From Nitrospirota bacterium (GTDB lineage: Bacteria > Nitrospirota > Thermodesulfovibrionia > Thermodesulfovibrionales > JdFR-85), in assembly GCA_013152485.1 (NCBI GenBank), contig JAADGG010000025.1:50-64049 (forward strand): a stretch of DNA of 64,000 nt, in the 5' to 3' direction. A program made the translations under genes and the position numbers. Shown here piece by piece: positions 3,202 to 17,892 of the stretch; positions within the stretch are counted from its first letter, which is position 1, and every line of letters begins with the position of its first letter. The notes under the pieces were generated by a model. The model was not told where the DNA came from. It ran no database searches and saw nothing but the letters and a program-made list of their open reading frames with translations.

Positions 3202-4479
3202 TCAGAAGAGCATCTTCTGTCCCTTGATCTCCTCCCTTTCGACCTTCTCGAAGATCCTTATCCTGCCGTACTCGCCGTCGAAGCCCGGGGCGATATGGAT
3301 CCGGCCCGTACGCACCCTGGAGACGGCCTCCATCAACAGGGGCGAGCCCGCCCTGCCGATATCCTCAAGGGGTGTCTCCATGAGGATTTCGAATTCATTG
3401 CCGAGGCTGCTGAGGACCTTCAGGTATTCGTTGTTCACCTTCTTGCTGTTGACCCCGACCTTGAGGGTCTCCGAGATTATCTCGGGCAGGGGGATCAGGG
3501 AGTGGAAGCCCGGCAGGCCGGGCGGACTGAACCCCTCCTGCCTGTCCGCAAGCTCTTCGACCCTGTGCATGACACCGACCGTGACCCGTCTGCCGCAGAC
3601 CGGGCAGAGGTAGTCGTGCTCTATGGTCTCCCTCGGCGAGAGGCTCACACCGCAGAGCCTGTGACCGTCATAGTGGTACTTGCCCTCTTCAGGGAAGAAC
3701 TCTATGGTGCCGAGAAGACCCTTCTTTGTCCTGACGGCCTCCATGATGGCTCCATATGAGAGGTCGGTGTCGAATATGTTCGCCTCGCGGCCGATCTTTG
3801 CGGGCGAGTGGGCATCGGAGTTCGATATGAGGGTTATGCCGTCAAGCCGTGAGAGCCTCCGGTTCATCTGCGGGTCCGAGGAGAGCCCGGTCTCTATGGC
3901 GTGGATGTGCGGGGTCAACTCCTCGAAGCACTCCTCGAGAGAATCGAAGCCCGACATCGCCCCGAAGACCGAGAAATGCGGGGTCCATGCATGGGCCGGC
4001 ACGAGCATGGCATCGGTGGACACATCCAAGACCATCTTCAGGAGCTCCTTTGCATCGAGCCCGAGTATCGGCCTGCCGTCTGCCCTGAGGTTACCTATAC
4101 CCGACAGGACCGCATTCAGCCTTGCGGCATCGGCAAAGTCGGGCACGAACACGATGGAGTGTATCTTCCTGGTCCTGCCGCCCTTGCTGTATATGCAGCT
4201 GATCTCAGCGGAGAGGAGGAAGAAGGGCTCGGCCCGGCAGGAATCCGGGACCTCTGCAGTCCTGTAGTCGTCCTTCAGGGTGAAGAGGCCGTTGCCGGCA
4301 GGTTCGAGCTTCTCCCGGAGCTCGTTGAGCCACCCCGGATGCGTGAAGTCCCCGGTGCCTACGACGTTGACGCCCTTGAGCTGCGCCCACTTCCATATGC
4401 TCTCAGGGGACATCTCCCTGCTGGTAGCCCTCGAGTACTTCGAATGAATGTGGAGGTCCGCTACGAAACGCATGTGCAA
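3202..4479 (-). CDS. PHP-domain protein, endonuclease Q-like (TIGR00375-type)
   Basis: 425-aa ORF. N-terminal DLHIHSKYS...GTGDFTHP PHP motif, later HYDGHRLC and a CPVCGRRVTVGVMHRVEEL zinc-finger-like segment. It lies 5 nt upstream of the helicase gene. Confidence 0.65.
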   Translation of the reverse strand: MHMRFVADLHIHSKYSRATSREMSPESIWKWAQLKGVNVVGTGDFTHPGWLNELREKLEPAGNGLFTLKDDYRTAEVPDSCRAEPFFLLSAEISCIYSKGGRTRKIHSIVFVPDFADAARLNAVLSGIGNLRADGRPILGLDAKELLKMVLDVSTDAMLVPAHAWTPHFSVFGAMSGFDSLEECFEELTPHIHAIETGLSSDPQMNRRLSRLDGITLISNSDAHSPAKIGREANIFDTDLSYGAIMEAVRTKKGLLGTIEFFPEEGKYHYDGHRLCGVSLSPRETIEHDYLCPVCGRRVTVGVMHRVEELADRQEGFSPPGLPGFHSLIPLPEIISETLKVGVNSKKVNNEYLKVLSSLGNEFEILMETPLEDIGRAGSPLLMEAVSRVRTGRIHIAPGFDGEYGRIRIFEKVEREEIKGQKMLF

Positions 4480-4679: not shown

Positions 4680-4766
4680 GGGTTATTAGCACTCTCTGCG
4701 TTAAAGTGCTAACAACATCCTGATCAGTGATCATTACCTATTTCGGGACATGCGGAGGTGATAGTA

Positions 4767-5821
4767 ATGAGAATTGCTCAGGTTTCCCCGCTTTACGAGA
4801 GTGTTCCACCCCGTCTTTATGGAGGGACAGAGAGGATCGTTTCTTACCTTACCTTACCGAGGAGCTGGTCAAGGCGGGTCACGAGGTGGTGCTCTTCGCC
4901 TCCGGTGACTCAGAGACCTCGGCCGAGCTCGTGCCGATATGCGAGACCGCCCTGAGGCTCGAGAAGAGGTGTGTGGACCCTGTCTCGCTCCACTTTCTAC
5001 AGATGGAGGAAGTCCTGAAGCGCCAGGACGAGTTTGATATCATACACACGCATGTCGACTGTTTCGGTTTCGCCCTAGCAAGGAGGACGGCCGTGCCTGT
5101 GGTCAGCACCCTTCACGGCAGGCTCGACCTCTGGGGCTATCCATCCGTCTTCAGGGAGTACCGGGAGATCCCCCTCGTCTCGATCTCGAACGCCCAGAGG
5201 AGTCCGCTGCCCTTTGCGAACTGGGCTGCGACCGTCTACCACGGACTGCCCGGCGAGTTGTACAACCTGAACGAGGACGGCGGTGACTATCTCGTCTTCG
5301 TCGGAAGGGTATCACCCGAAAAGCGGGTTGATTCCGCGATCGAGATAGCCGTAAAGGCCGGCATCCCGCTCAAGATAGCGGCAAAGGTGGACAAGGCCGA
5401 CGCCGAATACTTCGAGGCGATGATCCGTCCCCTGCTGAAGCATCCGCTCGTGGAGTTCCTCGGAGAGATCAACGACGAGGAGAAGAACGAGCTTCTCGGC
5501 TCGGCACTCGCCTTCCTGCACCCTGTCGACTGGCCGGAACCCTTCGGTCTTGCGATGATCGAGGCGATGGCCTGCGGCACCCCCGTGATAGCGAGGCGCA
5601 GGGGGTCCATTCCCGAGGTGGTCGATCACGGAATAACCGGGTTCATCTTTGAGGAGGACAAGGAGGCTGTCTTCAGTATCAAGAACCTCCTCGGCAACTT
5701 TTCGAGGAGGGCCTGCAGGGAGCATTTCGAGAAGAGGTTCCTGGCAAGCAGGATGGCCGACGATTACCTGGGTGTCTACGTCAGGCTGCTGAGCGGGAAG
5801 TATGAACAGAAAGTCGCCTGA
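4767..5821 (+). pseudogene. GT4-family glycosyltransferase interrupted by a +5 frameshift (extra CTTAC unit)
   Basis: The N-terminus MRIAQVSPLYESVPPRLYGGTERIVSYLT is in the frame of ORF 4758-4955, with RBS ggagg 7 nt before ATG 4767. The rest (EELVKAGHEVVLFASGDSE...) is in the frame of ORF 4727-5821. The junction is cttaccttaccttacc (4843-4858). Deleting one cttac restores IVSYLTEELVKAGHEV. Confidence 0.85.
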
Positions 5822-7979
5822 AGTCAGCAGGATAAGGGACAAGTACTACATCTCGGCCACCTCCTCGATGATCGACCCCCACAGGCTCATCCTGAAGGAA
5901 GAGGACCTGTTCGGGGTATTCGACCGTTTCGGCGACATCCTCCCGATGGGGAAGAACGAGCAGGGCCTCTACTTCAAGGGGATGAGGTTCCTCTCGTACT
6001 ACGAGCTCAGGATAGGGGGGCTGAGGCCCCTGTTTCTGTCCTCCTCGGTCGACGAGGAGGACATCCTCCTCACCGTCGACCTTACCAACCCCGACCTGTA
6101 CTCGAGGGGCAGGCTCCTGATAAAGAAGGACACGGTTCACATCATGCGTTCGAAGGTCCTGTTCGAGCAGAGGTGTCTCGACTACATCAGGATCAGGAAC
6201 TTCGGCCTCCATGCGATAGACCTGAGCCTCGACTTCTCCATGGACGCGGACTTCAAGGACATCTTCGAGGTACGCGGGCTGAAGAGGAAGAAGAGGGGGA
6301 CCATCCACCCCCCTGAATACAGGGAGCGGGGCATGGTACTGACCTACGAAGGCCTCGACGGTGTCAGGCGGACGACGTCCATCGGCTTTTCGAGATCACC
6401 CGACGGGGTTCACGACAAGACCTTCTCCTTCAAGATCAGGCTGGACCCGGGGGGCATGGAGGAGATGCTGCTCGGCATCGGCTGCGCAGTGGCCGGCACG
6501 GCTCGGGAAGAGCCGGAGTTCGACGTGACGGTAAGGAAGTCGAGAAAGAAGCTCCAGAGAAAGACGCGGCACTGCACGGAGATATACACCTCGAACGAGC
6601 AGTTCAACGAATCCCTCAAGAGGGCGATCTCGGACATCAACATGATGCTCACGAAGACGGAGCACGGTCTTTACCCCTACGGAGGCATCCCCTGGTTCTG
6701 CACCCCGTTCGGCAGGGACGGGATCATCACAGCGCTCGAGTCCCTGTGGGTGAATCCGGAACTGGCAAAGGGGGTCCTGCTCTACCTCGCCGCCAGGCAG
6801 GCTCAGGACTTCGACAGGACAAAGGCGGCCGAGCCCGGCAAGATACTCCACGAGGCACGGGAAAACGAGATGGCCGCCCTGGGGGAGATCCCGTTCGGCC
6901 TCTATTACGGAAGCGTCGACTCCACCCCCCTGTTTCTCATCCTCGCGGGGGCCTACTGGAGGAGGACCGGGGATACGGCCCTGATATCAAAGATATGGGA
7001 CAACATAGAGAAGGCCCTGTTGTGGATGGAGAGGCACGGTGATGTGGATGGTGACGGCTTCCTCGAATACGTGCCGCATGAAAACGGGCTTCGCAACCAG
7101 GGGTGGAAGGACTCGCATGACTCCATCTTTCATGAAGACGGGTCTCTCGCAGAGGGGCCGATAGCGCTGTGCGAGGTGCAGGGCTACCAGTATGCCGCAA
7201 AGCAAGAGGTGGCGATGCTTTCCGCCCTCATGGGGAAGGAGGCCCTTGCGCGGAGGCTGCTGCAGGAGGCTCGGGAGTTGAAGGAGAGGTTCAACAGTCT
7301 CTTCTGGGACGAGGAGCTGGGCACTTACGTGCTCGCCCTCGACGGCGCGAAGAGGCCCTGCAGGGTGGTCTCCTCCAATGCCGGACAGGTGCTCTTCACG
7401 GGGATCGCCGATCCAGGCAAGGCCGTGAAGGTCGCCGAGACCCTGACGTCTGATACGGTCTTCTCAGGCTGGGGAATAAGGACCGTAGGAACCGGTGAGG
7501 CGCTCTACAATCCGATGTCCTACCACAACGGCTCCGTGTGGCCTCACGACAACGCCCTGATAGCCTACGGGTTCTCCGTATACGGCCTGAAGGAGCCTTT
7601 CATAAAGGTCTTCTCGGGAATATTCGATGCCTCGCTCTTCATGGAGTTTCAGCGCCTTCCCGAGCTCTTCTGCGGTTTCAAGAGGAGGCGCGGTGCGCCC
7701 CCGACGCTCTATCCGGTTGCGTGCGTTCCGCAGACGTGGGCCGCCGGCTCACTCCTTCTGATGCTTCAGGCATCGCTCAGGCTCGGGTTCGAGGCCGACC
7801 GGGGACGGATCGTCTTCAGGCAGCCTGTACTGCCGGAGTTTCTCCAGCAGGTCTTCCTCAAGAACCTGACCGTGACGGGGAAGAAGAGCGTCGACCTTCT
7901 GATCAGGCGTTACGGCGAGGATGTGACCATCGAGGTTCAGCGTAAGCCCGAGGACGTGAGCGTGCTTATAATCAAGTAG
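5802..7979 (+). CDS. Amylo-alpha-1,6-glucosidase / glycogen-debranching-enzyme-like protein
   Basis: 725-aa ORF. Has the GDE N-terminal domain pattern plus the (alpha/alpha)6 C-domain motifs GIPWFCTPFGRDG, GKILHE and YHNGSVWPHDN. Overlaps the GT gene by 20 nt. Confidence 0.8.
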   Translation: MNRKSPEVSRIRDKYYISATSSMIDPHRLILKEEDLFGVFDRFGDILPMGKNEQGLYFKGMRFLSYYELRIGGLRPLFLSSSVDEEDILLTVDLTNPDLYSRGRLLIKKDTVHIMRSKVLFEQRCLDYIRIRNFGLHAIDLSLDFSMDADFKDIFEVRGLKRKKRGTIHPPEYRERGMVLTYEGLDGVRRTTSIGFSRSPDGVHDKTFSFKIRLDPGGMEEMLLGIGCAVAGTAREEPEFDVTVRKSRKKLQRKTRHCTEIYTSNEQFNESLKRAISDINMMLTKTEHGLYPYGGIPWFCTPFGRDGIITALESLWVNPELAKGVLLYLAARQAQDFDRTKAAEPGKILHEARENEMAALGEIPFGLYYGSVDSTPLFLILAGAYWRRTGDTALISKIWDNIEKALLWMERHGDVDGDGFLEYVPHENGLRNQGWKDSHDSIFHEDGSLAEGPIALCEVQGYQYAAKQEVAMLSALMGKEALARRLLQEARELKERFNSLFWDEELGTYVLALDGAKRPCRVVSSNAGQVLFTGIADPGKAVKVAETLTSDTVFSGWGIRTVGTGEALYNPMSYHNGSVWPHDNALIAYGFSVYGLKEPFIKVFSGIFDASLFMEFQRLPELFCGFKRRRGAPPTLYPVACVPQTWAAGSLLLMLQASLRLGFEADRGRIVFRQPVLPEFLQQVFLKNLTVTGKKSVDLLIRRYGEDVTIEVQRKPEDVSVLIIK

Positions 7980-8078
7980 AGAGGTCCGGGGTGATTTCGA
8001 AAACCGGAAGGATTACGGCGGTCGAGCCCCCGGGTGGGGCCTCCTGCAGGCTCGGTGCCGGCAGGAGGGGAACCGGTC

Positions 8079-8240
8079 TCAGCGGCCGGTCTTTTCCTTC
8101 TTGACATACTTTTCGGGATTCTTTTCGAACTCCGCCTGGCAGAGGGGGCAGCACAGATAGTAGTTCTTCCCCTCGTGCTCGATCGTGATGTGCGCCTTGT
8201 TGGGATTCATCTTCCTTCCACAGACCGGGTCTTTATGCAT
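8079..8240 (-). CDS. YHS-domain small protein (53 aa, below the ORF-track cutoff)
   Basis: Hand translation: MHKDPVCGRKMNPNKAHITIEHEGKNYYLCCPLCQAEFEKNPEKYVKKEKTGR. This is a YHS/TRASH-like DPVCGM...Y.FCS..C pattern. The gene lies directly downstream of the cupredoxin and copA genes. Confidence 0.7.
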   Translation of the reverse strand: MHKDPVCGRKMNPNKAHITIEHEGKNYYLCCPLCQAEFEKNPEKYVKKEKTGR

Positions 8241-8259
8241 GATTCATACCTCCTTCCTG

Positions 8260-8631
8260 TTATTCCTCTACAATGAGTTTTCCCCTGATCATTCCCATCT
8301 GACAGGAGAAGTCGTACTCGCCGGGCTTTTCCGGCAGGAGTTCCACCACCACCTCTTCATACGGCGGAAGCTTTGCAGACTTGTTGAACGCGCCGAAGAC
8401 GACCATCTCCGTGCATGAGGCCTCTTCCTCGCGCGTGAAGATGAGCCTGAGGGGTTGTCCCGCCTTTGCGACTATTACGTCGGGGTCATAGCCCCCCTTC
8501 ACTTTTATGAAGACTTCCTGGATGCCTGACGATACGGCCGCCCTGACCTGCTTCTTCCTGGAGAAGAGGAAGAACCAGATGATCCAGGCTATGGTGAGAA
8601 TGCCCGCTGCTGTCACTATAACCTTGTCCAT
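8260..8631 (-). CDS. Membrane-anchored cupredoxin-like protein
   Basis: 123-aa ORF with an N-terminal TM helix, then a beta-rich domain ending in FSCQMGMIRGKLIVEE (Cys/Met ligand-like). It starts 4 nt after the copA stop. Confidence 0.6.
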   Translation of the reverse strand: MDKVIVTAAGILTIAWIIWFFLFSRKKQVRAAVSSGIQEVFIKVKGGYDPDVIVAKAGQPLRLIFTREEEASCTEMVVFGAFNKSAKLPPYEEVVVELLPEKPGEYDFSCQMGMIRGKLIVEE

Positions 8632-8634
8632 GTC

Positions 8635-11121
8635 TCACCTCAACTTGAGAAATCTGAGTCTGTTTGCATTGCTGACGACGGTCACCGAACTCATGGCCAT
8701 GGCGGCACCTGCAAGGATCGGGTTCATGGTGATGCCCCATATGGGATAGAGGATTCCGGCTGCTACGGGGACGAGAGCCGTGTTGTAGAAGAAGGCGCCG
8801 AACAGGTTCTCCCTGACGTTCTTCATCGTGGCCTTCGAGATGCTTATCGCCGCCTTTATTCCGAGCAGGGATCCCTTGATCAGTGTTATGTCGGACGCCT
8901 CTATCGCAACGTCCGTGCCGGTACCGATCGCCATTCCGACATCCGCGCGGGCGAGTGCCGGGGCGTCGTTTATCCCGTCGCCCACGAATGCGACCTTCCT
9001 GCCCTCGAGCTGCAGTTTCCGCACCTCGCGGGCCTTGTCTTCGGGCAGTACCTCTGCAAGCACCCTGCCTATGCCGACCCTCTTTGCTATGGCCTCGGCA
9101 GTACGCCTGTTGTCGCCGGTTATCATCACGACGTCCACGCCGAGGCCCTTCAGGCCCTGTATCGCCTCGATGGAATCATCCTTGAGAGGGTCCGAGACGG
9201 CTATGACGCCGGCGGCCCTGCCGTCGACGGCGACGAAGATGGGGGTCTTTCCTTCATCGGCGAGCATGTGGGAATCCTTTTCGAATATGTCGAGGTCGGC
9301 GCCTATCCGCTCCATGAGCTTCCTGTTGCCGAGGCTGATCCTCTTTCCATCCACGACACCCTCCACCCCGTATCCGGGGATCGCATTGAAGTCGTCCGGG
9401 TCCGGAGGGGTGATCTCCCTGGTTCCGGCACCTTGCAGTATCGCCTCTGCCAGAGGATGCTCGGAATTCTTCTCGAGGGCTGCGGCAAACCTGACGATCT
9501 CCTTCTCATCGCCTTCAGGGGCGACTATGACATCCGTCAGCGCAGGCTTTCCCACGGTAATGGTGCCTGTTTTGTCGAGCACGACGGTGTCGAGTGCGGA
9601 GGCGACCTGTATGGCCTCCCCGTTTCTTATCAGGATGCCGTTCTCCGCGGCCTTTCCGACGCCGATCATCAGCGAGGTCGGTGTTGCGAGCCCGAGGGCG
9701 CACGGACATGCAACGATCAGCGTGGTCACTGCACCGAGCAGGGCGAGTATGATGCGGGGTTCGGGGCCGAGGTCGTACCAGAGGACGAAGCTCGACACGG
9801 CGATGACCATTACGGCGGGAACGAAGTATCCGCTGACGGTGTCGGCCAGTTTCTGTATCGGGGCCTTTGAGCCCTGGGCCTCCTGGACCATCCTGATGAT
9901 CTGGGCAAGTGCCGTGTCCTTTCCGACCTTGGTGGCCCTGAACCTGAAGGCTCCCGTCTTGTTGATCGTTCCTCCTATCACCTCGTCGCCCTCCTGCTTC
10001 TCTGCAGGAAGGGGCTCGCCCGTCAGCATGGACTCGTCCACGCTCGACCGTCCCTCGACGAGCACGCCGTCGACCGGGATCTTCTCCCCGGGACGTACAA
10101 CGACCGTATCACCGACCAGTACCTCCTCTATCGGTATGTCGATCTCGGCACCTTCCCTTATGACACGGGCGGTCTTGGCCTGCAGCCCCATCAGCTTCTT
10201 TATGGCCTCCGACGTCCTGCCCTTGGCCCTCAGCTCCAGTGCCTGGCCGAGCACCACGAGGGCGATGACCACGGAGACCACGTCGAAATAGGGCTCCCGC
10301 GCGTTCTCCGGAAACAGCTCCGGAAAGAGGACCACAACGGTCGAGAAGAGCCATGCCATGCCCGTGCCGAGGGCTATCAGCGTGTTCATGTCGGCGGCCC
10401 GGTGCCTGAAGGCAGCGACCGCGCCCTTGAAGAAGCTGCTCCCTGAATATACAAGAGCAGGCACGGTGAGAAGACTCGCGCCCATCCACAGCAGTCTCAG
10501 GGTGTCCATGTCCAGGTCCTTGAGCACGGGGAAGAACGTAGGATAGCTCACCACTATGACGGGCAGGGATATAAGGGCGGCAACCGTGAACCGCCTCAGA
10601 AGGGCCTTGTATTCCTTTTCCTTCGCATCCTCTTCCCTGGCCGGTGAGGGTTCGGTCTCCGCCCTGTAGCCTGAGGACCCTATAACCTTCTTCAACGACT
10701 CGATGGTCGTCATCGACGGGAGAAACTCCACGGTTGCGCTTTCGGAACCCAGGTTGACCTCGGCGCGTATGACGCCCGGAGAGCCCTTCAGTGCGTCCTC
10801 GACCTTACTGACACACGAGGCACACGTCATTCCCCTGATCTTGAGCGTGACCTTTTCAGAGCCGACGTCATAGCCGCTGTCCTTGATGACCTTTATTATC
10901 TGTCCCATCCCGATCAGGCCGGGATCGTACGAGACAAAGGCCTTTTGAGAGGCGAAGTTGATGTTCGCCTCCCTGATTCCTTCCAGGGATGCGAGAGCCT
11001 TTTCTATCGTCGCCGTACAGGAGGCGCAGGTCATTCCGGTTACGGGCAGCTCTACCCTCACCGCTCCCCTGTGCTCTCCGCTCACCCCGGTCGTAGCCGA
11101 GGGAATGATTGCGTGTTTCAT
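8635..11121 (-). CDS. copA: Copper-translocating P1B-type ATPase
   Basis: 828-aa ORF. Two N-terminal HMA domains (GMTCASC twice), CPC in the TM helix, DKTGT phosphorylation motif, GDGINDAP hinge. Confidence 0.95.
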
Positions 11122-11274
11122 CGCCCGTACCCCCCTGTGTCCCGTCCCCGGCTGACAAGACCTTGCACCGGCACAAAGACCGCGCTTCCGCTTGTGTACT
11201 CCGGGGCATGAACTCCCTTGAATACGGCAAGGAGCCGCCTCCAGACCCGATCCGTCCTGACCCGTTTCATGACA

Positions 11275-12246
11275 TTACCCTCCTTTTTTTTCAAGCTCCA
11301 CCAGGGAGAACCATCCTTTCGGGTCAGAGAACCAGCCCCTGACATCCAGGCCGGCATCCCGGGCCGTACGCTCCATGTCCTCCCTGGTGAACTTACGGCA
11401 GATCTCGGTGAGAATGCCTTCCCCCTTCTCCAGGTAGACCTCGATTGCAAGGGAGCCTATATTCACCGACATGTCGGTTTCCGCCTGCAGATACATCTCC
11501 ATGCGCTTTTCCTCTTCGTTGAAGACGGCGCGGTGTCGGAACCGTCCGAGGTCGAAATCCGCGCCGAGCTCCCTGTTCAGGACCCTCAGGATATTCTTGT
11601 TGAACTCGGCAGTGACGCCTGCAGAGTCGTTATATGCCCGCTCCAGGATGTCGCGCGGTTTCAGCATGTCGATCCCGAGCAGAAGACGGTCTCCTTTTCC
11701 CATTGAGCCGGAGATGCTTCTCAGGAAACAGACGCCGGTGTCTTCGTCGAAGTTGCCGATGGTGCTGCCGAAAAACACGAACAGCCTTTCACGTTCCGCG
11801 GGGATGACATCGATGTGGCATGTGAAGTCTGCGGCTATTCCGAGCAGGTTCAGCCCGGGATAGTCTTTCAGCAGTCCGGCGACCGAGGACTCCAGGGCGG
11901 TCTCGCTCACATCGACCGGTATGTAGCGGAAGTCCGGAAGCCTGTTTGCGGCAACGGTATCGAGGAGGGTCCTGATCTTCAGGTTCGCACCGGCCCCCAG
12001 CTCGACTATGTCGCCCTTGCGGAAATGCTGCATCAGGGCCGGAGCCGCGCTCTTCAGTATGGAGAGTTCCGTGCGTGTCGGGTAGTATTCCGGCAGGCGG
12101 CAGATCTCCTCAAACAGGGCGGAGCCGCGGGCGTCGTAGAAATACTTGCTCGGAATCGACTTTTGAGATGCGGTCATGCCGTTGAGCACATCCACCCTTA
12201 TGTCCTCGTGGAAGGTCGTGTTTATGTAGTTCAGGGTACTGATCAT
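11275..12246 (-). CDS. EgtD-like SAM-dependent L-histidine N-alpha-methyltransferase family protein
   Basis: Has KSIPSKYFYDARGSALFEEICRLPEYYPTRTE and LGAGANLKIRTLL, typical of the EgtD/Methyltransf_33 family. I prefer start 12246 (ATGA overlap with the upstream stop, GAGGG 7 nt upstream) over the track start 12282. Confidence 0.75.
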   Translation of the reverse strand: MISTLNYINTTFHEDIRVDVLNGMTASQKSIPSKYFYDARGSALFEEICRLPEYYPTRTELSILKSAAPALMQHFRKGDIVELGAGANLKIRTLLDTVAANRLPDFRYIPVDVSETALESSVAGLLKDYPGLNLLGIAADFTCHIDVIPAERERLFVFFGSTIGNFDEDTGVCFLRSISGSMGKGDRLLLGIDMLKPRDILERAYNDSAGVTAEFNKNILRVLNRELGADFDLGRFRHRAVFNEEEKRMEMYLQAETDMSVNIGSLAIEVYLEKGEGILTEICRKFTREDMERTARDAGLDVRGWFSDPKGWFSLVELEKKGG

Positions 12247-13370
12247 GGACATGCCCTCGTGCCGCACCTGCACCATACGCATGTACAGTCATTGCGGCTG
12301 CAGCTGAGGTCCCTCACCCGGCTCTCGTACCCCGCGCTTGCAATCGGCAGCAGGAGGTTCTTGAAGAGAGAGGGTCTGTAGAGCCTCTTGAGGACCCTCG
12401 AGGGGTTGCCCCTGCCGAAGCATCTCGTCAGGTACCTGTAGCCTGCATGACCTATCCTTTCGAACAGGAAGCGGTTGACGAGGGAGGCCTCGAGCCCGGG
12501 CCTCAGCTCCCTCTGCCACAGTGTGTCGTAGTCGTCACCCTCTATGAAGCTCCGTGCAGCGATATATCCCGACAATATCGCATACCTCATGCCGAAGCCC
12601 CAGAGGCAGTCCTGGAAGCCCGCCGCCTCGCCGACGTAGATCTTTCCGTTGCGCACCTGGGAGTCCCGAAGGAAGAAGTTTCCGTAACCGCCGAACTTCC
12701 TCCTGTTTTCCATGTGTAGGTCCATCTTCTCGCTGAAGAAACCGAGGGTCTTTTCGAAATAGTCGTCCGCCTTCTTGAAGTTCCTGTAGAGGACGGTGGC
12801 CATCGTACCGTAGCCCTGTTTTATCAGAAGGTATGCGTATCCCTTCGGAGCGATCCCGTCATCGAGCACCACGGCCGCCATGTCCTTCATTTCGGTATTG
12901 AAGGTTATGCCGACGGCGACCGCGTCGGCTCCTTTGGGGCCTGTGCCGACGATCGCCCTGCCCTTGAAGCTGTCGAGGCGGTGGTTGAACGAGATCTCCA
13001 CGCCGAGCGACAGTGCCTGCTCCTTGAGGCCCCAGTCGAGGGTTCCCGGCATGCTGCCCCTCCTTACGAGATAGAAGATAGGCCTGTCCGAGCTCACTTC
13101 CACGGGATCCAGGCCGGGCGCATACAGTGTGCCTTCGTGGTAGGGCATGCAGAGGAAGTTGATCCCTATGCCGATATCCCGCAGCTGCTCGGTGACGTCT
13201 GTTTCGGAGCTCCAGTTCTCGAGCCCCTGAAAGTCGCCGCTCAGGCGGTGACCCACGTCCGGCGCCGCCTCGAAGACCTTGACGGCAAACCCGTGTCTGC
13301 GCAGGACTATGGCCGCTGCCAGAGACGCCGGGCCTGCCCCGATGATATGTACTGTCTCCTTGTGCGTCAT
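12243..13370 (-). CDS. FAD-dependent oxidoreductase (geranylgeranyl-reductase-like) with Cys-rich C-terminus
   Basis: The true start gives MTHKETVHIIGAGPASLAAA (GxGxxG dinucleotide fold). The track ORF is extended 47 aa upstream into galT. The C-terminus is CSRNDCTCVWCRCG. The start overlaps the galT stop by 1 nt (TGATG). Confidence 0.7.
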   Translation of the reverse strand: MTHKETVHIIGAGPASLAAAIVLRRHGFAVKVFEAAPDVGHRLSGDFQGLENWSSETDVTEQLRDIGIGINFLCMPYHEGTLYAPGLDPVEVSSDRPIFYLVRRGSMPGTLDWGLKEQALSLGVEISFNHRLDSFKGRAIVGTGPKGADAVAVGITFNTEMKDMAAVVLDDGIAPKGYAYLLIKQGYGTMATVLYRNFKKADDYFEKTLGFFSEKMDLHMENRRKFGGYGNFFLRDSQVRNGKIYVGEAAGFQDCLWGFGMRYAILSGYIAARSFIEGDDYDTLWQRELRPGLEASLVNRFLFERIGHAGYRYLTRCFGRGNPSRVLKRLYRPSLFKNLLLPIASAGYESRVRDLSCSRNDCTCVWCRCGTRACP

Positions 13371-14383
13371 CACGCAGTTTCTCCGTTGGGCACCTCGAAG
13401 CCCCGGATGTATTCGGCGGTCTCCTCGGGAAGCGCATGGTTGATGTAGATGCCCGAGCCGAGCTCGAACCCTGCAGGCAGGGAGAGACGCGGGATTATCT
13501 GGATGTGCCACAGGAAGTAGGCCTTGTGTTCGTCGTCCACAGGTGCAGTGTGGATGACCATGTTGTAGTCTGGATTCTCGAGACTGACATACAGCTTCAG
13601 CAGGACCTGTTTCAGTGTCGCAGCGAGGTCCGCGACCTCGTCGTCAGAGATGTTTCCGAATGACGAGTTGTGCACCTTCGGCATGAGCCAGGTCTCGAAC
13701 GGGTAGCGCGACGCATAGGGGTGCAGGACGATGAAGTATTCCGTCTCGGCTATGGTCCGCTCCGATGTGCGGAGCTCGTAGTCCCGTATGTCGCAGTAGA
13801 GGCAGCGGCCCGTGTTGTCGTAGTACTGGACGGCTATCTCGTAGCGTCGCCGTACAGACGGCGGGACGATCGGTGAGGCGACGACCTGTGAGTGCGGATG
13901 TTCGAGCGAGGTGCCTGCCCCGCGGCCGTGATTTTTGAGGATTATGACCGTTCTGACCGCGGGGTCTTTTTTGAGTGCGTGGTACCTGTCCCTGTATACC
14001 CTGATGATTCCCCCGACGTCTGAATCGTCCATGAAGGGGATGAAGTTGTCATGCCGCGGTGTCTCGATGACGACCTCGTGGCTGCCGTATCCGGGACTCT
14101 TCCTGAAGGGGCCGATCTCCTCTCTTTCAGCTGTGACGTCGGTGGTGAGTGCGGCGAACTTGTTCGGCACCACACGGGTCTTCCATTCACCGGGCCCTCC
14201 GTATACGGCCTTCGCCTCAGGCGTCCTGTGCTCGTTTCCCGGACAGAAGGGACAGCTGTCGCTGTGAGCGGGAAAATACGGCCGCGTCATGTTCTCCTTC
14301 CTGAACTCCCATGGCCGCTTTGCCCGCTCTTTGGCAATGATGACCCAGTCGTACGTGGTCGGGTCCTGCCTCAGTTCTGACAT
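13370..14383 (-). CDS. galT: Galactose-1-phosphate uridylyltransferase-like HIT-superfamily nucleotidyltransferase
   Basis: 337-aa ORF with the CPFCPGNE zinc motif, VVPNKFAAL and the HPHSQ active-site motif. Confidence 0.8.
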   Translation of the reverse strand: MSELRQDPTTYDWVIIAKERAKRPWEFRKENMTRPYFPAHSDSCPFCPGNEHRTPEAKAVYGGPGEWKTRVVPNKFAALTTDVTAEREEIGPFRKSPGYGSHEVVIETPRHDNFIPFMDDSDVGGIIRVYRDRYHALKKDPAVRTVIILKNHGRGAGTSLEHPHSQVVASPIVPPSVRRRYEIAVQYYDNTGRCLYCDIRDYELRTSERTIAETEYFIVLHPYASRYPFETWLMPKVHNSSFGNISDDEVADLAATLKQVLLKLYVSLENPDYNMVIHTAPVDDEHKAYFLWHIQIIPRLSLPAGFELGSGIYINHALPEETAEYIRGFEVPNGETA

Positions 14384-14417
14384 AAGTTTCTCCTTTCCTT
14401 TTCAACTGCCGTCCCTC

Positions 14418-15532
14418 TCAGACCGTCTTCCGGAGGTCCAGAATGTACTGCCGTGCTGCCAGGGCTGCCTTCGCCCCTTCTCCGGAGGCGATGATGATGC
14501 GCTTGCCGAATGCGTTCGTGATGTCGCCGGCCGCGAATATTCCCGGATAAGAGGTCGAACAGTCAGGGTTTATCATGATCTCGCCCTTCTTGTTGAGCTT
14601 GACGAGATCGGCGACGAGCGCGGAGTTCGGCTGCAGCCCTATGGCGAGAACACACCCTTGACGGGCAGGTCGATCGTCTCCTTCTCGGCGATCTTCCTGA
14701 TCGTGACGTTGGAGAGCGTCTTGCCGCCTGAAAACTCGACCACCTTGTACCCCTCGTAGTAGCGTATGGGATAGATGGCGGAGTACGGACCTTTCTTGTG
14801 AGCGTTCCTGTAGCGGTTTATCCTGTCGATCACCACGGGGTCGGCCGAGAGCTTGGTGTCCGAGATGATGTAGACGTTTCTGGCGACCGTGTACAGGTTC
14901 TCGACTATCTGCATGGCTGAGTTGCCTCCGCCGATGACGGCGACGTCCTCTCCCTGAACGAGGGAGATGTCCTGGACATTGCCGTAGAAGACGCCCTTTC
15001 TCTGGAACTCCTCCTCTCCGGGCACCTTGAGCCTCCTCCTCGTCATCCCGGTGGCGATGATCAGTGTCTTCGCGAAGTACTTCTTGAGGTCCGAGGTGGT
15101 CACGTTGAATCCGCCCTCGACAGGCTCGATCACCTCTACATCGCTCATCAGGTGGTCGATGTAGTGTGAACCGATGAGCTGGTAGCGGAACTTCTCTATG
15201 AGTTCAGGCCCTGTTATGAAATCGAAGCCCATGTAGTTCTCGATCTTCGTGCTGTCGACGGCCTGTCCGCCGAGGTCCCGCGTGATCAGGAAGGCCTCCA
15301 TCTTGAGAGTGGCCGCATACACCGCAGCAGTCAGTCCCGCAGGACCGCCCCCGATGATGATCAGGTCGTATGACGTGCGCGGCAGCTTGCAAACCCTTTC
15401 CTTGAGGAACCTCTCCCTGCACCCTTCGGAACAGAAATAGTAGATCTCGCCGTCACACTCAGTGGTGATGGCGTTATTTTCCTCGACATCCATATTGCAT
15501 ATGGGATCTTTTTTGATGTTTTTCCCTTTCAT
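14418..15532 (-). pseudogene. YHS-domain / thioredoxin-reductase-like flavoprotein fusion, interrupted by a frameshift near 14640
   Basis: ORF 14639-15532 has an N-terminal YHS domain (DPICNMDV...YYFCSEGC) then IIIGGGPAGLTAA, and it stops at VKGVFSP*. In another frame, hand translation continues AIGLQPNSALVADLVKLNKKGEIMINPDCSTSYPGIFAAGDITNAFGKRIIIASGEGAKAALAARQYILDLRKTV* and ends at 14418. Total length is 1115 nt, which is 1 nt short of a multiple of 3. Confidence 0.8.
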
Positions 15533-15708
15533 TTTCTCCTCCTCCTTGTTCTTGCAGCGTGTAATATGCGATGACCGCCCGTAATGCCTGAAATGCCGCG
15601 GGCTTCATTCATATTACAGTATATAGGATACTGCTCAAGTTTGAACACAATATGAAGAGAAGATGAGGTTTTTGTGAAGACGCGGCAAGGAGGACCGCTT
15701 GGGGGGTG

Positions 15709-17892
15709 TCAGGCGGGCTTCGGTCCCGTTCTGCTGCGGCCCTCTGTTCCTCTGCTTCCGCGGCCGTTCTTGAGGGAGAGAGATATGCGCCTGCGTTGCA
15801 GGTCCACGTTCAGCACCGTGACCGTCACCTTCTGGTGGACCTTCACCACGTCTGCCGGGTTCTTCACGAACCTGTCGGAGAGCTCGCTTATGTGGACGAG
15901 TCCGTCCTGGTGTACGCCGATATCCACGAAACAACCGAAGGCCGTGATGTTGGTGACGATTCCCGGAAGCCTCATCCCGGGCCTGACGTCCTCGATCTTG
16001 TCGATCCCGTCGGCGAACCTGAAGACCTCGAACCGCTCTCTCGGGTCACGGCCCGGTTTGGCCAGTTCTTCCATGATATCGAGCAGGGTCGGCATTCCGA
16101 CCCCGTCGGTCACGTAACACCGGAGATCGATCTTCCGCCTGAGGCCTTCGTCCTTCATCAGGTCGGTCAGCGTGCACCCGAGGTCCCTCGCCATGGCGTC
16201 GACGACGTGATAGCTCTCGGGGTGGACCGCAGAGCCGTCGAGCGGGTGTTCGCCGTTGCGTATCCTCAGGAATCCCGCCGCCTGCTCGAAGGCCTTCGGC
16301 CCGAGGCGGGGTACGTTCAGGAGTTCCATGCGAGACCTGAACGGGCCGTGCTCGTTCCTGTAGTCCACGATCCCCTTTGCAATCCGGGGGCCGAGCCCGG
16401 AGACATAGGAGAGAAGCTGCCTGCTTGCGGTATTCACCTCGACCCCTACAAGGTTTACACAGCTTACGACCACGTCATCGAGGCTCCTCTTCAGTGCGGC
16501 CTGGTCTACGTCGTGCTGGTACTGTCCGACGCCTATGGACTTGGGGTCTATCTTCACAAGCTCGGCAAGCGGGTCCATGAGGCGCCGTCCGATCGAGACC
16601 GCGCCCCTCACGGTCACGTCGTGGCCGGGAAACTCCTCGCGCGCCGCCTCTGACGCCGAATAAACCGAGGCACCGCTTTCGCTCACCATCACTATCTCGA
16701 TCCCGGCCGGAAGCCCCACACCCCGCAAGAACGACTCGGTCTCCCTCCCGGCGGTGCCGTTGCCGACGGCTACCGCCTCGATGCCGAAGCGGCTGCAGAG
16801 GGCTCTGATCTTCGCTGCAGCCTCGGAAGCCCCCCTGTCGGATGCGTGGGGGTGGATCGTGTCGTGGTGCAGCAGCTTTCCCTGCGGATCGAGGCAGACG
16901 AGCTTGCACCCCGTCCTGAACCCGGGATCGACGGCAAGTATCCTCTTTCCGCCCAGAGGCGGTGCAAGCAGCAGTTGCCTGAGGTTTTCTGCAAAGACGC
17001 GTATCGCCTCCTCATCCGCCCGCTTCTTAAGGGCGAGGCGTGTTTCGGCCTCTATGGATGGGGCGAGCAGCCGCTTGAAGCCGTCACGGACTGCGGTCCT
17101 CACCTCTTCCGAGGCTGGACCGTTCCCCCTGACAAAGAGTTCATCGAGCATGGCGAGTGCATCGTCCTCGGGCGTGACTATGCGGAAGGTGAGCACGCCC
17201 TCTCTCTCTCCGCGCCTGATGGCGAGTATCCTGTGCGAGGGAGCCCCGGATACTGGCTCATCCCATTCGTAGTAGTCTTTATACTTGATCCCCGCCTCTT
17301 CCTTTCCCTTGACGACCCTCGACCTTATGACACCCCTGGTCCGGAAGAGCGTGCGCATCCTCTCCCGGGCACGCTGGTCTTCGCTTATCCACTCGGCGAT
17401 TATGTCCCTTGCTCCGGCGAGTGCGGTTCCGGCAGAGTCGACGCCTTTTCCAGGATCCACAAATGCCCGGGCCTCCTCCCCGGGGTCGACACCGGCCTGT
17501 TCGAAGATCATCGAGGCGAGCGGTTCGAGTCCCTGCTCCCTCGCAATGGTCGCGCGCGTGCGGCGCTTGGGCCTGTAGGGTAGATAGACGTCCTCGAGCA
17601 TGGTCATGGAGCCGGCAGCGTCGATCTTCGCCTTGAGCGTGTCGGTCAGCAGGCCCCGCTCTTTCAGGGACTTGATGATCGCCTCGCGCCTCCTGTCGAG
17701 CTCCCTCAGCTGCTCGAGCCTGTCCCTGACGGCCCTTACCGCGACCTCGTCGAGGCTCCCGGTGGCCTCCTTGCGGTATCTTGCGATGAACGGCACGGTC
17801 GCCCCTTCATCTAGCAGGGCTGCGGTTGCCTCGACCTGCGCAGGCCTGATGCCGAGTTCTTCCGAGATGATACGGGTATGGAGTCCGTTCAT
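15709..17892 (-). CDS. tex: Tex-like transcription accessory protein (S1 RNA-binding domain)
   Basis: Starts MNGLHTRIISEELGIRPAQVEATAALLDEGATVPFIARYRKE. Has YqgF/HhH regions and a C-terminal S1 domain (GIVTNITAFGCFVDIG). The track start 17994 runs into the upstream helicase gene, so I use ATG 17892. Confidence 0.9.
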   Translation of the reverse strand: MNGLHTRIISEELGIRPAQVEATAALLDEGATVPFIARYRKEATGSLDEVAVRAVRDRLEQLRELDRRREAIIKSLKERGLLTDTLKAKIDAAGSMTMLEDVYLPYRPKRRTRATIAREQGLEPLASMIFEQAGVDPGEEARAFVDPGKGVDSAGTALAGARDIIAEWISEDQRARERMRTLFRTRGVIRSRVVKGKEEAGIKYKDYYEWDEPVSGAPSHRILAIRRGEREGVLTFRIVTPEDDALAMLDELFVRGNGPASEEVRTAVRDGFKRLLAPSIEAETRLALKKRADEEAIRVFAENLRQLLLAPPLGGKRILAVDPGFRTGCKLVCLDPQGKLLHHDTIHPHASDRGASEAAAKIRALCSRFGIEAVAVGNGTAGRETESFLRGVGLPAGIEIVMVSESGASVYSASEAAREEFPGHDVTVRGAVSIGRRLMDPLAELVKIDPKSIGVGQYQHDVDQAALKRSLDDVVVSCVNLVGVEVNTASRQLLSYVSGLGPRIAKGIVDYRNEHGPFRSRMELLNVPRLGPKAFEQAAGFLRIRNGEHPLDGSAVHPESYHVVDAMARDLGCTLTDLMKDEGLRRKIDLRCYVTDGVGMPTLLDIMEELAKPGRDPRERFEVFRFADGIDKIEDVRPGMRLPGIVTNITAFGCFVDIGVHQDGLVHISELSDRFVKNPADVVKVHQKVTVTVLNVDLQRRRISLSLKNGRGSRGTEGRSRTGPKPA

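Follow-up and report, generated by a model that had tools for sequence, protein, structure and literature searches.

An EgtD gene within a copper-export cluster of the Nitrospirota: conserved partners of copA and a possible link to hercynine supply

Why does a gene for EgtD, the L-histidine N-alpha-methyltransferase (hercynine synthase), stand in the middle of a set of copper-export genes, and what do the two flavoproteins and the GalT-like enzyme encoded beside it have to do with either? The question is raised by seven co-directional minus-strand genes at positions 8079-15532 of a 64,000-nt stretch of the Nitrospirota contig JAADGG010000025.1 (assembly GCA_013152485.1), called here the window. 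An earlier annotation from the letters alone (the sequence-only reading) had named the seven genes and their copper theme, and had proposed either that egtD, the gene for an FAD-binding protein and the galT-like gene form one biosynthetic trio or that they were brought together by a coincidental operon fusion. Surveying the neighbourhoods of the homologues gene by gene (related loci are cited by L numbers), we found instead that two pairs of genes, TrxR-like/FAD and galT-like/copA, each conserved on its own, are interleaved in the cluster, with EgtD and a cupredoxin/YHS tail in addition. In the reading that we favour, and rate somewhat above an even chance, the whole is a composite copper-stress operon with copA as its hub, lying on the chromosome of an anaerobic, Thermodesulfovibrionia-like member of the Nitrospirota, and EgtD couples the supply of hercynine to it.

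Gene content and conservation of the cluster

Pfam and NCBIfam labels bear out all seven gene identities of the sequence-only reading, and the coordinates of the open reading frames (ORFs) give the tight packing that it described. From the first gene, encoding a YHS-fused flavoprotein similar to thioredoxin reductase (TrxR), to the last, encoding a free-standing YHS protein, the junctions are a 34-nt gap, a 1-nt overlap, a 4-nt overlap in which the egtD start at 12246 overlaps the stop of the FAD gene as ATGA, and gaps of 153, 3 and 19 nt. The same seven-gene order recurs in L004, L005 and L006, which come from the genome collection, and in L084, L085, L089 and L090, at 69-86% amino-acid identity and in a shared chromosomal slot, with genes for a DEAD-box helicase and Tex upstream and convergent genes for a GDE-like glucosidase and a GT4 glycosyltransferase downstream. 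All cluster genes are under purifying selection (dN/dS 0.04-0.19, window versus L004). The arrangement is not due to chance, and the linkage to copA that the sequence-only reading had wished to see in other genomes is found in at least seven relatives.

The copper theme is carried by CopA (8635..11121, minus strand), which scores 615 bits against TIGR01511 (cutoff 397) and stays below the E. coli-specific equivalog NF007952 (806 versus a cutoff of 1316). Its two N-terminal HMA domains each hold GMTCASC, and CPC at 472, DKTGT at 516, YN at 779 and MAMSS at 808 follow; CopA thus carries the full signature of a P1B-1 Cu(I)-exporting ATPase (CPC, YN, MxxSS, DKTGT and N-terminal GMxCxxC). Behind it come a small membrane-anchored cupredoxin-like protein (8260..8631, minus strand; Pfam Cupredoxin_1, 73.7 bits) and a 53-aa YHS/TRASH metal-binding protein (8079..8240, minus strand; Pfam YHS, 47.7 bits) with the cysteine triad C7...C30/C31-x2-C34. 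The cupredoxin gene follows copA in all loci of the EgtD clade delimited below and also lies beside the FAD gene in Rhodothermus and Bacteroidota loci; the terminal YHS gene is conserved at the cluster end in L004, L005, L084, L085 and L089. As their motifs support, the three proteins would together provide copper export and metal hand-off.

A flavoprotein family associated with copper ATPases

The FAD-binding protein (12243..13370, minus strand) carries the FAD motif GxGxxG at its N-terminus as well as a GD-like motif, and ends in CSRNDCTCVWCRCGTRACP, with the tail pattern C-x5-C-x-C-x2-C-x-C-x4-C. In Pfam it matches NAD_binding_8 and otherwise nothing beyond Rossmann-type entries, and no curated Pfam or NCBIfam family covers it; against TIGR02032 (GG-red-SF) it reaches 47.6 bits, over the C-terminal third only and far from the cutoff of 158.8, which places it outside that family. 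In the family alignment the motif GDFQGLENWS is invariant, and the Cys-rich tail is present in many members, not in all. An AlphaFold (AF2) model (pLDDT 84) has as its best Foldseek match 3oz2 (TM 0.64, E 1.6e-16, 16% identity), so that the protein is predicted to adopt a geranylgeranyl-reductase (GGR)/PHBH-like fold, the likeness being one of fold only. Of the affiliations that the sequence-only reading had suggested checking, the GGR-like fold therefore stands; membership among the halogenases, Thi4 or GGR proper does not, the protein having fold-level similarity only, no curated family and no conserved core cysteine.

More than 2200 homologues of the FAD protein were scored, mostly from Nitrospirota and Desulfobacterota, and the family is present in at least 561 GTDB species genomes (one genome per species), spanning Nitrospirota, Thermodesulfobacteriota, Geobacteraceae, Rhodothermales, Calditrichota, Bacteroidota, Alpha- and Gammaproteobacteria. 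A strong copper-ATPase match was detected within 6 kb of the FAD gene in 31 of 80 species loci, co-directional in 31 of 31, and in 16 of the 30 loci with both flanks complete, against 1 of 79 unrelated control loci (653 kb); single-linkage clustering that included contig-end fragments found P1B-ATPase ORFs in 56 of 82 FAD loci. The neighbouring ATPases carry the transmembrane motifs CPC (27) or CPH (8), both copper types. The other recurrent neighbours are typical of metal islands: an ICMT/CzcN-like membrane methyltransferase (29 loci), DUF5676 (27) and SHOCT (16) proteins, YHS proteins, cupredoxins and the TrxR-like flavoprotein. EgtD and GalT together lie beside the FAD gene only in the closest clade, and GalT alone in L032.

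Homologues with 42-44% identity were also found on plasmids of Roseibium, Halomonas, Sulfitobacter and Paracoccus, inside metal islands that hold a copper ATPase, YHS, DUF2933, DUF5676 and ICMT proteins and an ECF sigma factor. On such marine proteobacterial plasmids (L177:9914-12510, L175:8748-12231, L176, L178) the FAD homologue overlaps or abuts genes of the CFA-synthase family, FabI or cardiolipin synthase, which hints at a role of the family in membrane lipids; lipid-enzyme neighbours of these three kinds occur in only about 3-5 of 81 genome loci, and the link is for that reason treated as a lead and not as a rule. A figure legend in PMC5328820 draws a 'chlP geranylgeranyl reductase', possibly of the same family, by the copper determinants of acidophiles.

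The second flavoprotein, encoded by the first gene (14418..15532, minus strand; Pfam YHS and Pyr_redox_2/3), accompanies the FAD gene in a Nitrospirota-like subset of loci (L001, L007, L008, L010, L011, L014 and L088). In L001:4800-12255 the pair lies between two copper ATPases, one a CPC enzyme with YHS and HMA domains, the other shorter and of CPH type. AhpF and TrxR can be aligned with the intact orthologue L084:3660-4775, whose best PDB matches reach 150 bits, and the score against TIGR01292 (thioredoxin-disulfide reductase) is 163.8 bits versus a cutoff of 343. In the window as in the orthologue, G-N-V-Q stands in place of the redox-active CxxC; the protein therefore cannot be a disulfide reductase, and a role as thioredoxin or AhpF reductase is ruled out. 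Copper ATPases of many phyla have the two flavoproteins beside them, and our best guess is that these would form an NAD(P)H-fed reductase system in which the TrxR-fold enzyme may act as donor and the GGR-fold protein as catalyst; its target might be a double bond of a membrane lipid or quinone, or bound copper.

The first gene is not intact in the window. Its identity was given correctly by the sequence-only reading, which lists it as one gene, but the frame ends at 14639, and a different frame, down to 14418, encodes the conserved C-terminus (AIGLQPNS...GIFAAGD...). In a DNA alignment with four orthologues one base is missing near 14645 (14640-14650), where TTC-ATC-GCC became TTCTCGCC. Since the gene is otherwise strongly conserved on either side of it (96% identity to L004 and dN/dS 0.04 for the N-terminal part), the lesion would be a very recent frameshift or a sequencing or assembly error.

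A GalT-like gene paired with copA

The GalT-like HIT nucleotidyltransferase (13370..14383, minus strand; GalP_UDP_transf N and C domains) scores 164 bits against TIGR00209 (cutoff 102), and its translation shows a CPFC zinc site and an HPHSQ (H-x-H-x-Q) active site. Among proteins of solved structure it matches the Arabidopsis ADP-glucose phosphorylase At5g18200 (1z84) best, at 243 bits versus 133 for E. coli GalT. The enzyme thus appears closest to ADP-glucose phosphorylase, by scores that do not fix its nucleotide and sugar specificity; its possible contribution is the chemistry of its family, in which a nucleotidyl group is transferred by way of a histidine adduct.

The Nitrospirota have many homologues at 60-68% identity. 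Besides the cluster clade, six contexts were sampled, five from Nitrospirota and one deltaproteobacterial; a scan of viral contigs for further contexts gave none. In four of the five Nitrospirota contexts (L170, L171, L172 and L174) the gene closely precedes a P1B-ATPase gene on the same strand: the gap is 81 nt in L172, 59 nt in L174 and 124 nt in L171, and in L170 only SHOCT and CsoR genes intervene. This link makes galT-like/copA a conserved Nitrospirota pair, independent of EgtD and of the FAD protein. The outer flanks of the four contigs are mutually unrelated, and the persistence of the pair amid them points to selection on the pair and not to frozen synteny. In this phylum the gene for the ADP-glucose-phosphorylase-type enzyme is a conserved upstream partner of copA.

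The distributions of the FAD, GalT-like and EgtD families hence differ. The first two join copper ATPases without EgtD, and the nearest relatives of the window EgtD are coupled, as described below, to another enzyme. We therefore reject the single egtD/FAD/galT trio; the independent association with copA makes the FAD flavoprotein and the HIT enzyme partners of copA and not of EgtD.

EgtD and its origin

EgtD (11275..12246, minus strand, with an alternative upstream ATG at 12282; Methyltransf_33) scores 360.2 bits against the equivalog TIGR03438 (cutoff 290.9) and 355 bits against PF10017, and is about 45% identical to Mycobacterium smegmatis EgtD (4pim) from end to end, over 307 aligned residues. 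Eight of its nine histidine-site residues are identical (Y39, F47, Y56, N166, Y206, T213, M252 and E282 in M. smegmatis numbering), M252 being a residue that presumably has a role in substrate specificity; the ninth, S284, is replaced by a cysteine that is invariant across the subgroup linked to MES. The roles of all of these residues except M252 are described in PMC8593015. The sequence-only reading was right about this gene: the protein is a genuine histidine methyltransferase, predicted to trimethylate histidine to hercynine.

MES, a protein of about 1135 aa with Molybdopterin and Aminotran_5 domains, is the sulfur-inserting enzyme of anaerobic ergothioneine synthesis (Beliaeva & Seebeck 2022, PMC9516567), and the function of ergothioneine in anaerobes is, in the words of the same paper, 'not yet understood'. 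A metagenome scan with EgtD returned 80 loci, and the nearest EgtDs outside the clade of the window (47-60% identity) are almost all encoded directly downstream of MES. Some 40 contigs among L086-L128, from metagenome and genome loci, have MES immediately upstream of egtD, a uniform anaerobic ergothioneine locus of Nitrospirota-like lineages.

In a neighbour-joining tree the copper-island EgtDs (window, L004-L006, L084, L085, L088, L089 and L090; nine loci) form one clade nested inside the MES-linked EgtDs. The nesting implies that EgtD moved once from an MES locus into the metal island, and that it was still linked there after a later rearrangement, that of L088, whose EgtD is 58% identical to that of the window. 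The L088 island (L088:7001-15026) holds, in order, EgtD, ICMT, YHS, CsoR, LGT, cytochrome c, YHS, YHS-TrxR-like and FAD genes; about 5 kb separate EgtD from the TrxR-like/FAD pair, a GalT gene is absent from the island, and copA was not found in the fetched part of the contig. For an association that outlasts such a rearrangement and is under purifying selection, the 'coincidental operon fusion' of the sequence-only reading is too weak a description.

Transcription and remaining features

Upstream of the YHS-flavoprotein gene, a promoter-like block (15608..15678, minus strand) contains two sigma-70-like hexamer pairs, TTCACA-18-CATATT and TTCAAA-16-TATACT. A consensus scan of 7900-15800 gave five such sites versus 1.7 expected, two of them in this block, and the block, about 70 nt long, is nearly invariant in seven upstream regions (the window and six orthologous loci), the surroundings of which diverge. 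An 8-nt inverted repeat, TTCATATT/AATATGAA, brackets it and could be an operator. All seven genes are probably transcribed from one conserved promoter at this place: a single transcription unit would account most simply for the gene spacing, the overlapping stops and starts, and the lack of minus-strand terminator-like sites inside the cluster. An Rfam scan of the intergenic regions gave no match at E<=1 and thus no known RNA or riboswitch family, and a riboswitch was dropped as a candidate.

The 153-nt gap before copA has the size that the sequence-only reading gave it, yet is not empty. It is filled by a 50-codon relic of a gene for a small His/Gly-rich membrane protein (11118..11270, minus strand), whose N-terminus matches MEWVRANWFWIILFAVFIGIH of the intact 59-65-aa genes in L084 and L085 and whose stop overlaps the ATG of copA. 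A DUF5676 gene, absent from the window cluster, follows the intact gene in both L084 and L085.

Just past the YHS gene, genes for a GT4 glycosyltransferase and a GDE-like glucosidase (4727-7979, plus strand) converge on the end of the cluster; the pair is also present in L085, and is easily mistaken for partners of the GalT-like enzyme, but lies on the opposite strand and beyond the YHS gene. A 425-aa ORF at 3202-4479 (minus strand) has no Pfam match at E<=1e-5, and Pfam searches with the ten largest ORFs of the window recovered unrelated housekeeping genes only.

A copper-stress operon with a supply of hercynine?

In the composite copper-stress operon that we favour, EgtD would make hercynine from histidine under the same control as copper export, and a likely consequence would be ergothioneine, a copper-chelating thione, completed by an MES whose gene would lie elsewhere. 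Cu2+ is chelated by ergothioneine, and M. smegmatis is sensitive to Cu2+ when mutated in egtA (PMC5790434), from which we infer a small-molecule copper buffer as the purpose of the arrangement. The position of egtD in a copper-export operon thereby yields a testable hypothesis, namely that anaerobes make a thione as a copper buffer. If the FAD and HIT proteins act in copper tolerance as well, the standard picture of CopA efflux lacks enzymatic accessory steps, and because the FAD flavoprotein also occurs on plasmids of marine bacteria that can be cultured (Roseibium, Halomonas, Sulfitobacter), its genetics is feasible.

Several observations weigh against this reading. No MES homologue was detected by phmmer in the 64-kb window, nor any MES in the fetched flanks of all loci of the copper-island clade, and EgtB and EanB were not seen in the window or in those flanks, no searches having been made with their own profiles; an ergothioneine locus, taken as EgtD with a sulfur-inserting partner (EgtB, EanB or MES), was thus not found here, in agreement with the sequence-only reading, and the step from hercynine to ergothioneine is put forward conditionally for that reason. 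In Neurospora, Cu2+ tolerance is unaffected by loss of ergothioneine (PMC5790434). Phmmer queries found no CsoR or MerR-type regulator in the window, and with neither a CsoR nor a MerR/CueR type at hand copper induction is suggested by gene content only. The first gene of the cluster is broken in the window. EgtD entered the island once, so that its linkage lacks an independent replicate, and no other gene of the cluster evolves as fast (dN/dS is 0.19 and amino-acid identity 73% versus L004). The galT-copA linkage, finally, is based on five Nitrospirota contexts only, of which L169 has no copper genes, and in the deltaproteobacterial L173 the GalT-like homologue adjoins a glycogen phosphorylase gene.

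The single origin and low conservation of EgtD, and the last two GalT contexts, also speak for the explanation that survives best beside ours: EgtD was inserted by a single rearrangement and kept by inertia, making hercynine or ergothioneine for housekeeping, and the GalT-like protein is an ordinary sugar-nucleotide enzyme with inherited synteny. The glycogen-type GT4 and GDE genes just past the cluster fit such a view too. We nevertheless consider it unlikely, if by no means negligible: the linkage of EgtD to the island survives to 58% identity and through the rearrangement of L088, overlapping stop and start codons bind EgtD into the operon, and the galT-copA pair persists in four contigs whose outer flanks are wholly different. 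The copper-binding chemistry of ergothioneine, moreover, is documented (PMC5790434).

A further explanation would make the cluster a dedicated new pathway, in which the YHS-TrxR-like, GGR-fold FAD and GalT-like enzymes turn hercynine into ergothioneine or into a new Cu(I)-buffering thio- or nucleotidyl-histidine betaine. The overlaps of galT with the FAD gene (1 nt) and of the FAD gene with egtD (4 nt) suggest translational coupling, the gene order is kept throughout the clade, and the adjacency to MES that nearly all of the closest EgtDs show has been lost in precisely the copper-island clade, with no MES in the window; the Cys-rich tail and the YHS domain are conceivable carriers of sulfur or metal. 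We judge this pathway improbable. The FAD family and the GalT-like subfamily each occur with copA in many genomes without a nearby EgtD, many FAD-family members have no Cys-rich tail, and in L088 EgtD is separated from the TrxR-like/FAD pair and GalT is missing. None of the three enzymes has a known fold or motif for forming C-S bonds, and the gene for MES may simply lie in another part of the genome. That the copper-island enzymes were co-opted as a fourth, MES-free route, by which trimethylhistidine is converted on demand to ergothioneine or a new betaine, seems to us a shade less probable still.

Least credible of all, and hardly to be entertained, is another soft metal (Ag, Hg or Au) or redox stress as the main target, in which the flavoproteins would reduce metal in the manner of MerA: ATPases of the CPC type export Ag(I) as well, some related islands hold MerR-type regulators, ArsP and thioredoxin-fold proteins, and a metal-binding N-terminal domain on one flavoprotein with a Cys-rich C-terminal tail on its partner loosely recalls MerA, but the ATPase has the full Cu(I) signature (CPC, YN, MxxSS), the ATPases beside the FAD family have CPC or CPH motifs, cupredoxins and CsoR-type regulators recur, and, where MerA combines in one chain a C-terminal Cys pair with the CxxxxC-bearing core of a class-I pyridine-nucleotide disulfide oxidoreductase, the MerA model scores only 24.9 bits, the TrxR-like chain being without active-site cysteines and the Cys-rich tail standing on the separate GGR-fold protein.

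Comparison with known systems

A literature search found no description of egtD in a cop operon or any other link of EgtD or ergothioneine to copA operons, none of a copper-linked GGR-fold family, and none of a copA-paired HIT enzyme or of a connection between GalT-type or ADP-glucose-phosphorylase-like enzymes and copper or copA. Each component does have known relatives. With thioredoxin reductase, the C-terminal module of AhpF and the TrxR-like ferredoxin-NADP reductases, the first flavoprotein shares the two-Rossmann TrxR fold, from which it departs by the missing CxxC, a score below the TIGR01292 cutoff and an additional N-terminal YHS metal-binding domain. The FAD protein has its overall fold in common with geranylgeranyl reductases and other group-A flavoproteins (Ta0516, 3oz2; Sulfolobus GGR, 3atq; flavin halogenases); it is only about 16% identical to the geranylgeranyl reductases, however, and is set apart from them by the motif GDFQGLENWS, by the Cys-rich tail of many members and by a genomic context that is a copper island and not lipid or chlorophyll biosynthesis. 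The GalT-like protein aligns end to end with Arabidopsis At5g18200 (1z84) and shares with it the CxxC zinc site and the nucleotidyl-histidine motif H-x-H-x-Q, while belonging to a Nitrospirota subfamily that is encoded beside copA. The window EgtD is of the same subgroup as that of the anaerobic MES-EgtD locus (PMC9516567), but MES is adjacent in none of the nine copper-island loci, where EgtD is embedded in a metal operon instead.

The cluster as a whole is best set against the copA/copZ-type Cu(I) efflux operons, with which it shares the CopA motifs, the two HMA domains and the co-directional small metal-binding proteins that follow. It differs from them in having YHS/TRASH proteins in the place of CopZ, four enzyme genes ahead of copA (for two flavoproteins, a HIT transferase and EgtD), and no regulator gene in or near the cluster. 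Operons of the copA/copZ type are usually under the control of CsoR or CueR. The backbone is thus that of an ordinary Cu(I) efflux operon and the EgtD an ordinary member of the anaerobic, MES-associated subgroup; three things are new, namely an egtD that lies within a cop operon, a widespread GGR-fold flavoprotein family systematically linked to copper ATPases, and an ADP-glucose-phosphorylase-like HIT enzyme as a conserved partner of copA in the Nitrospirota.

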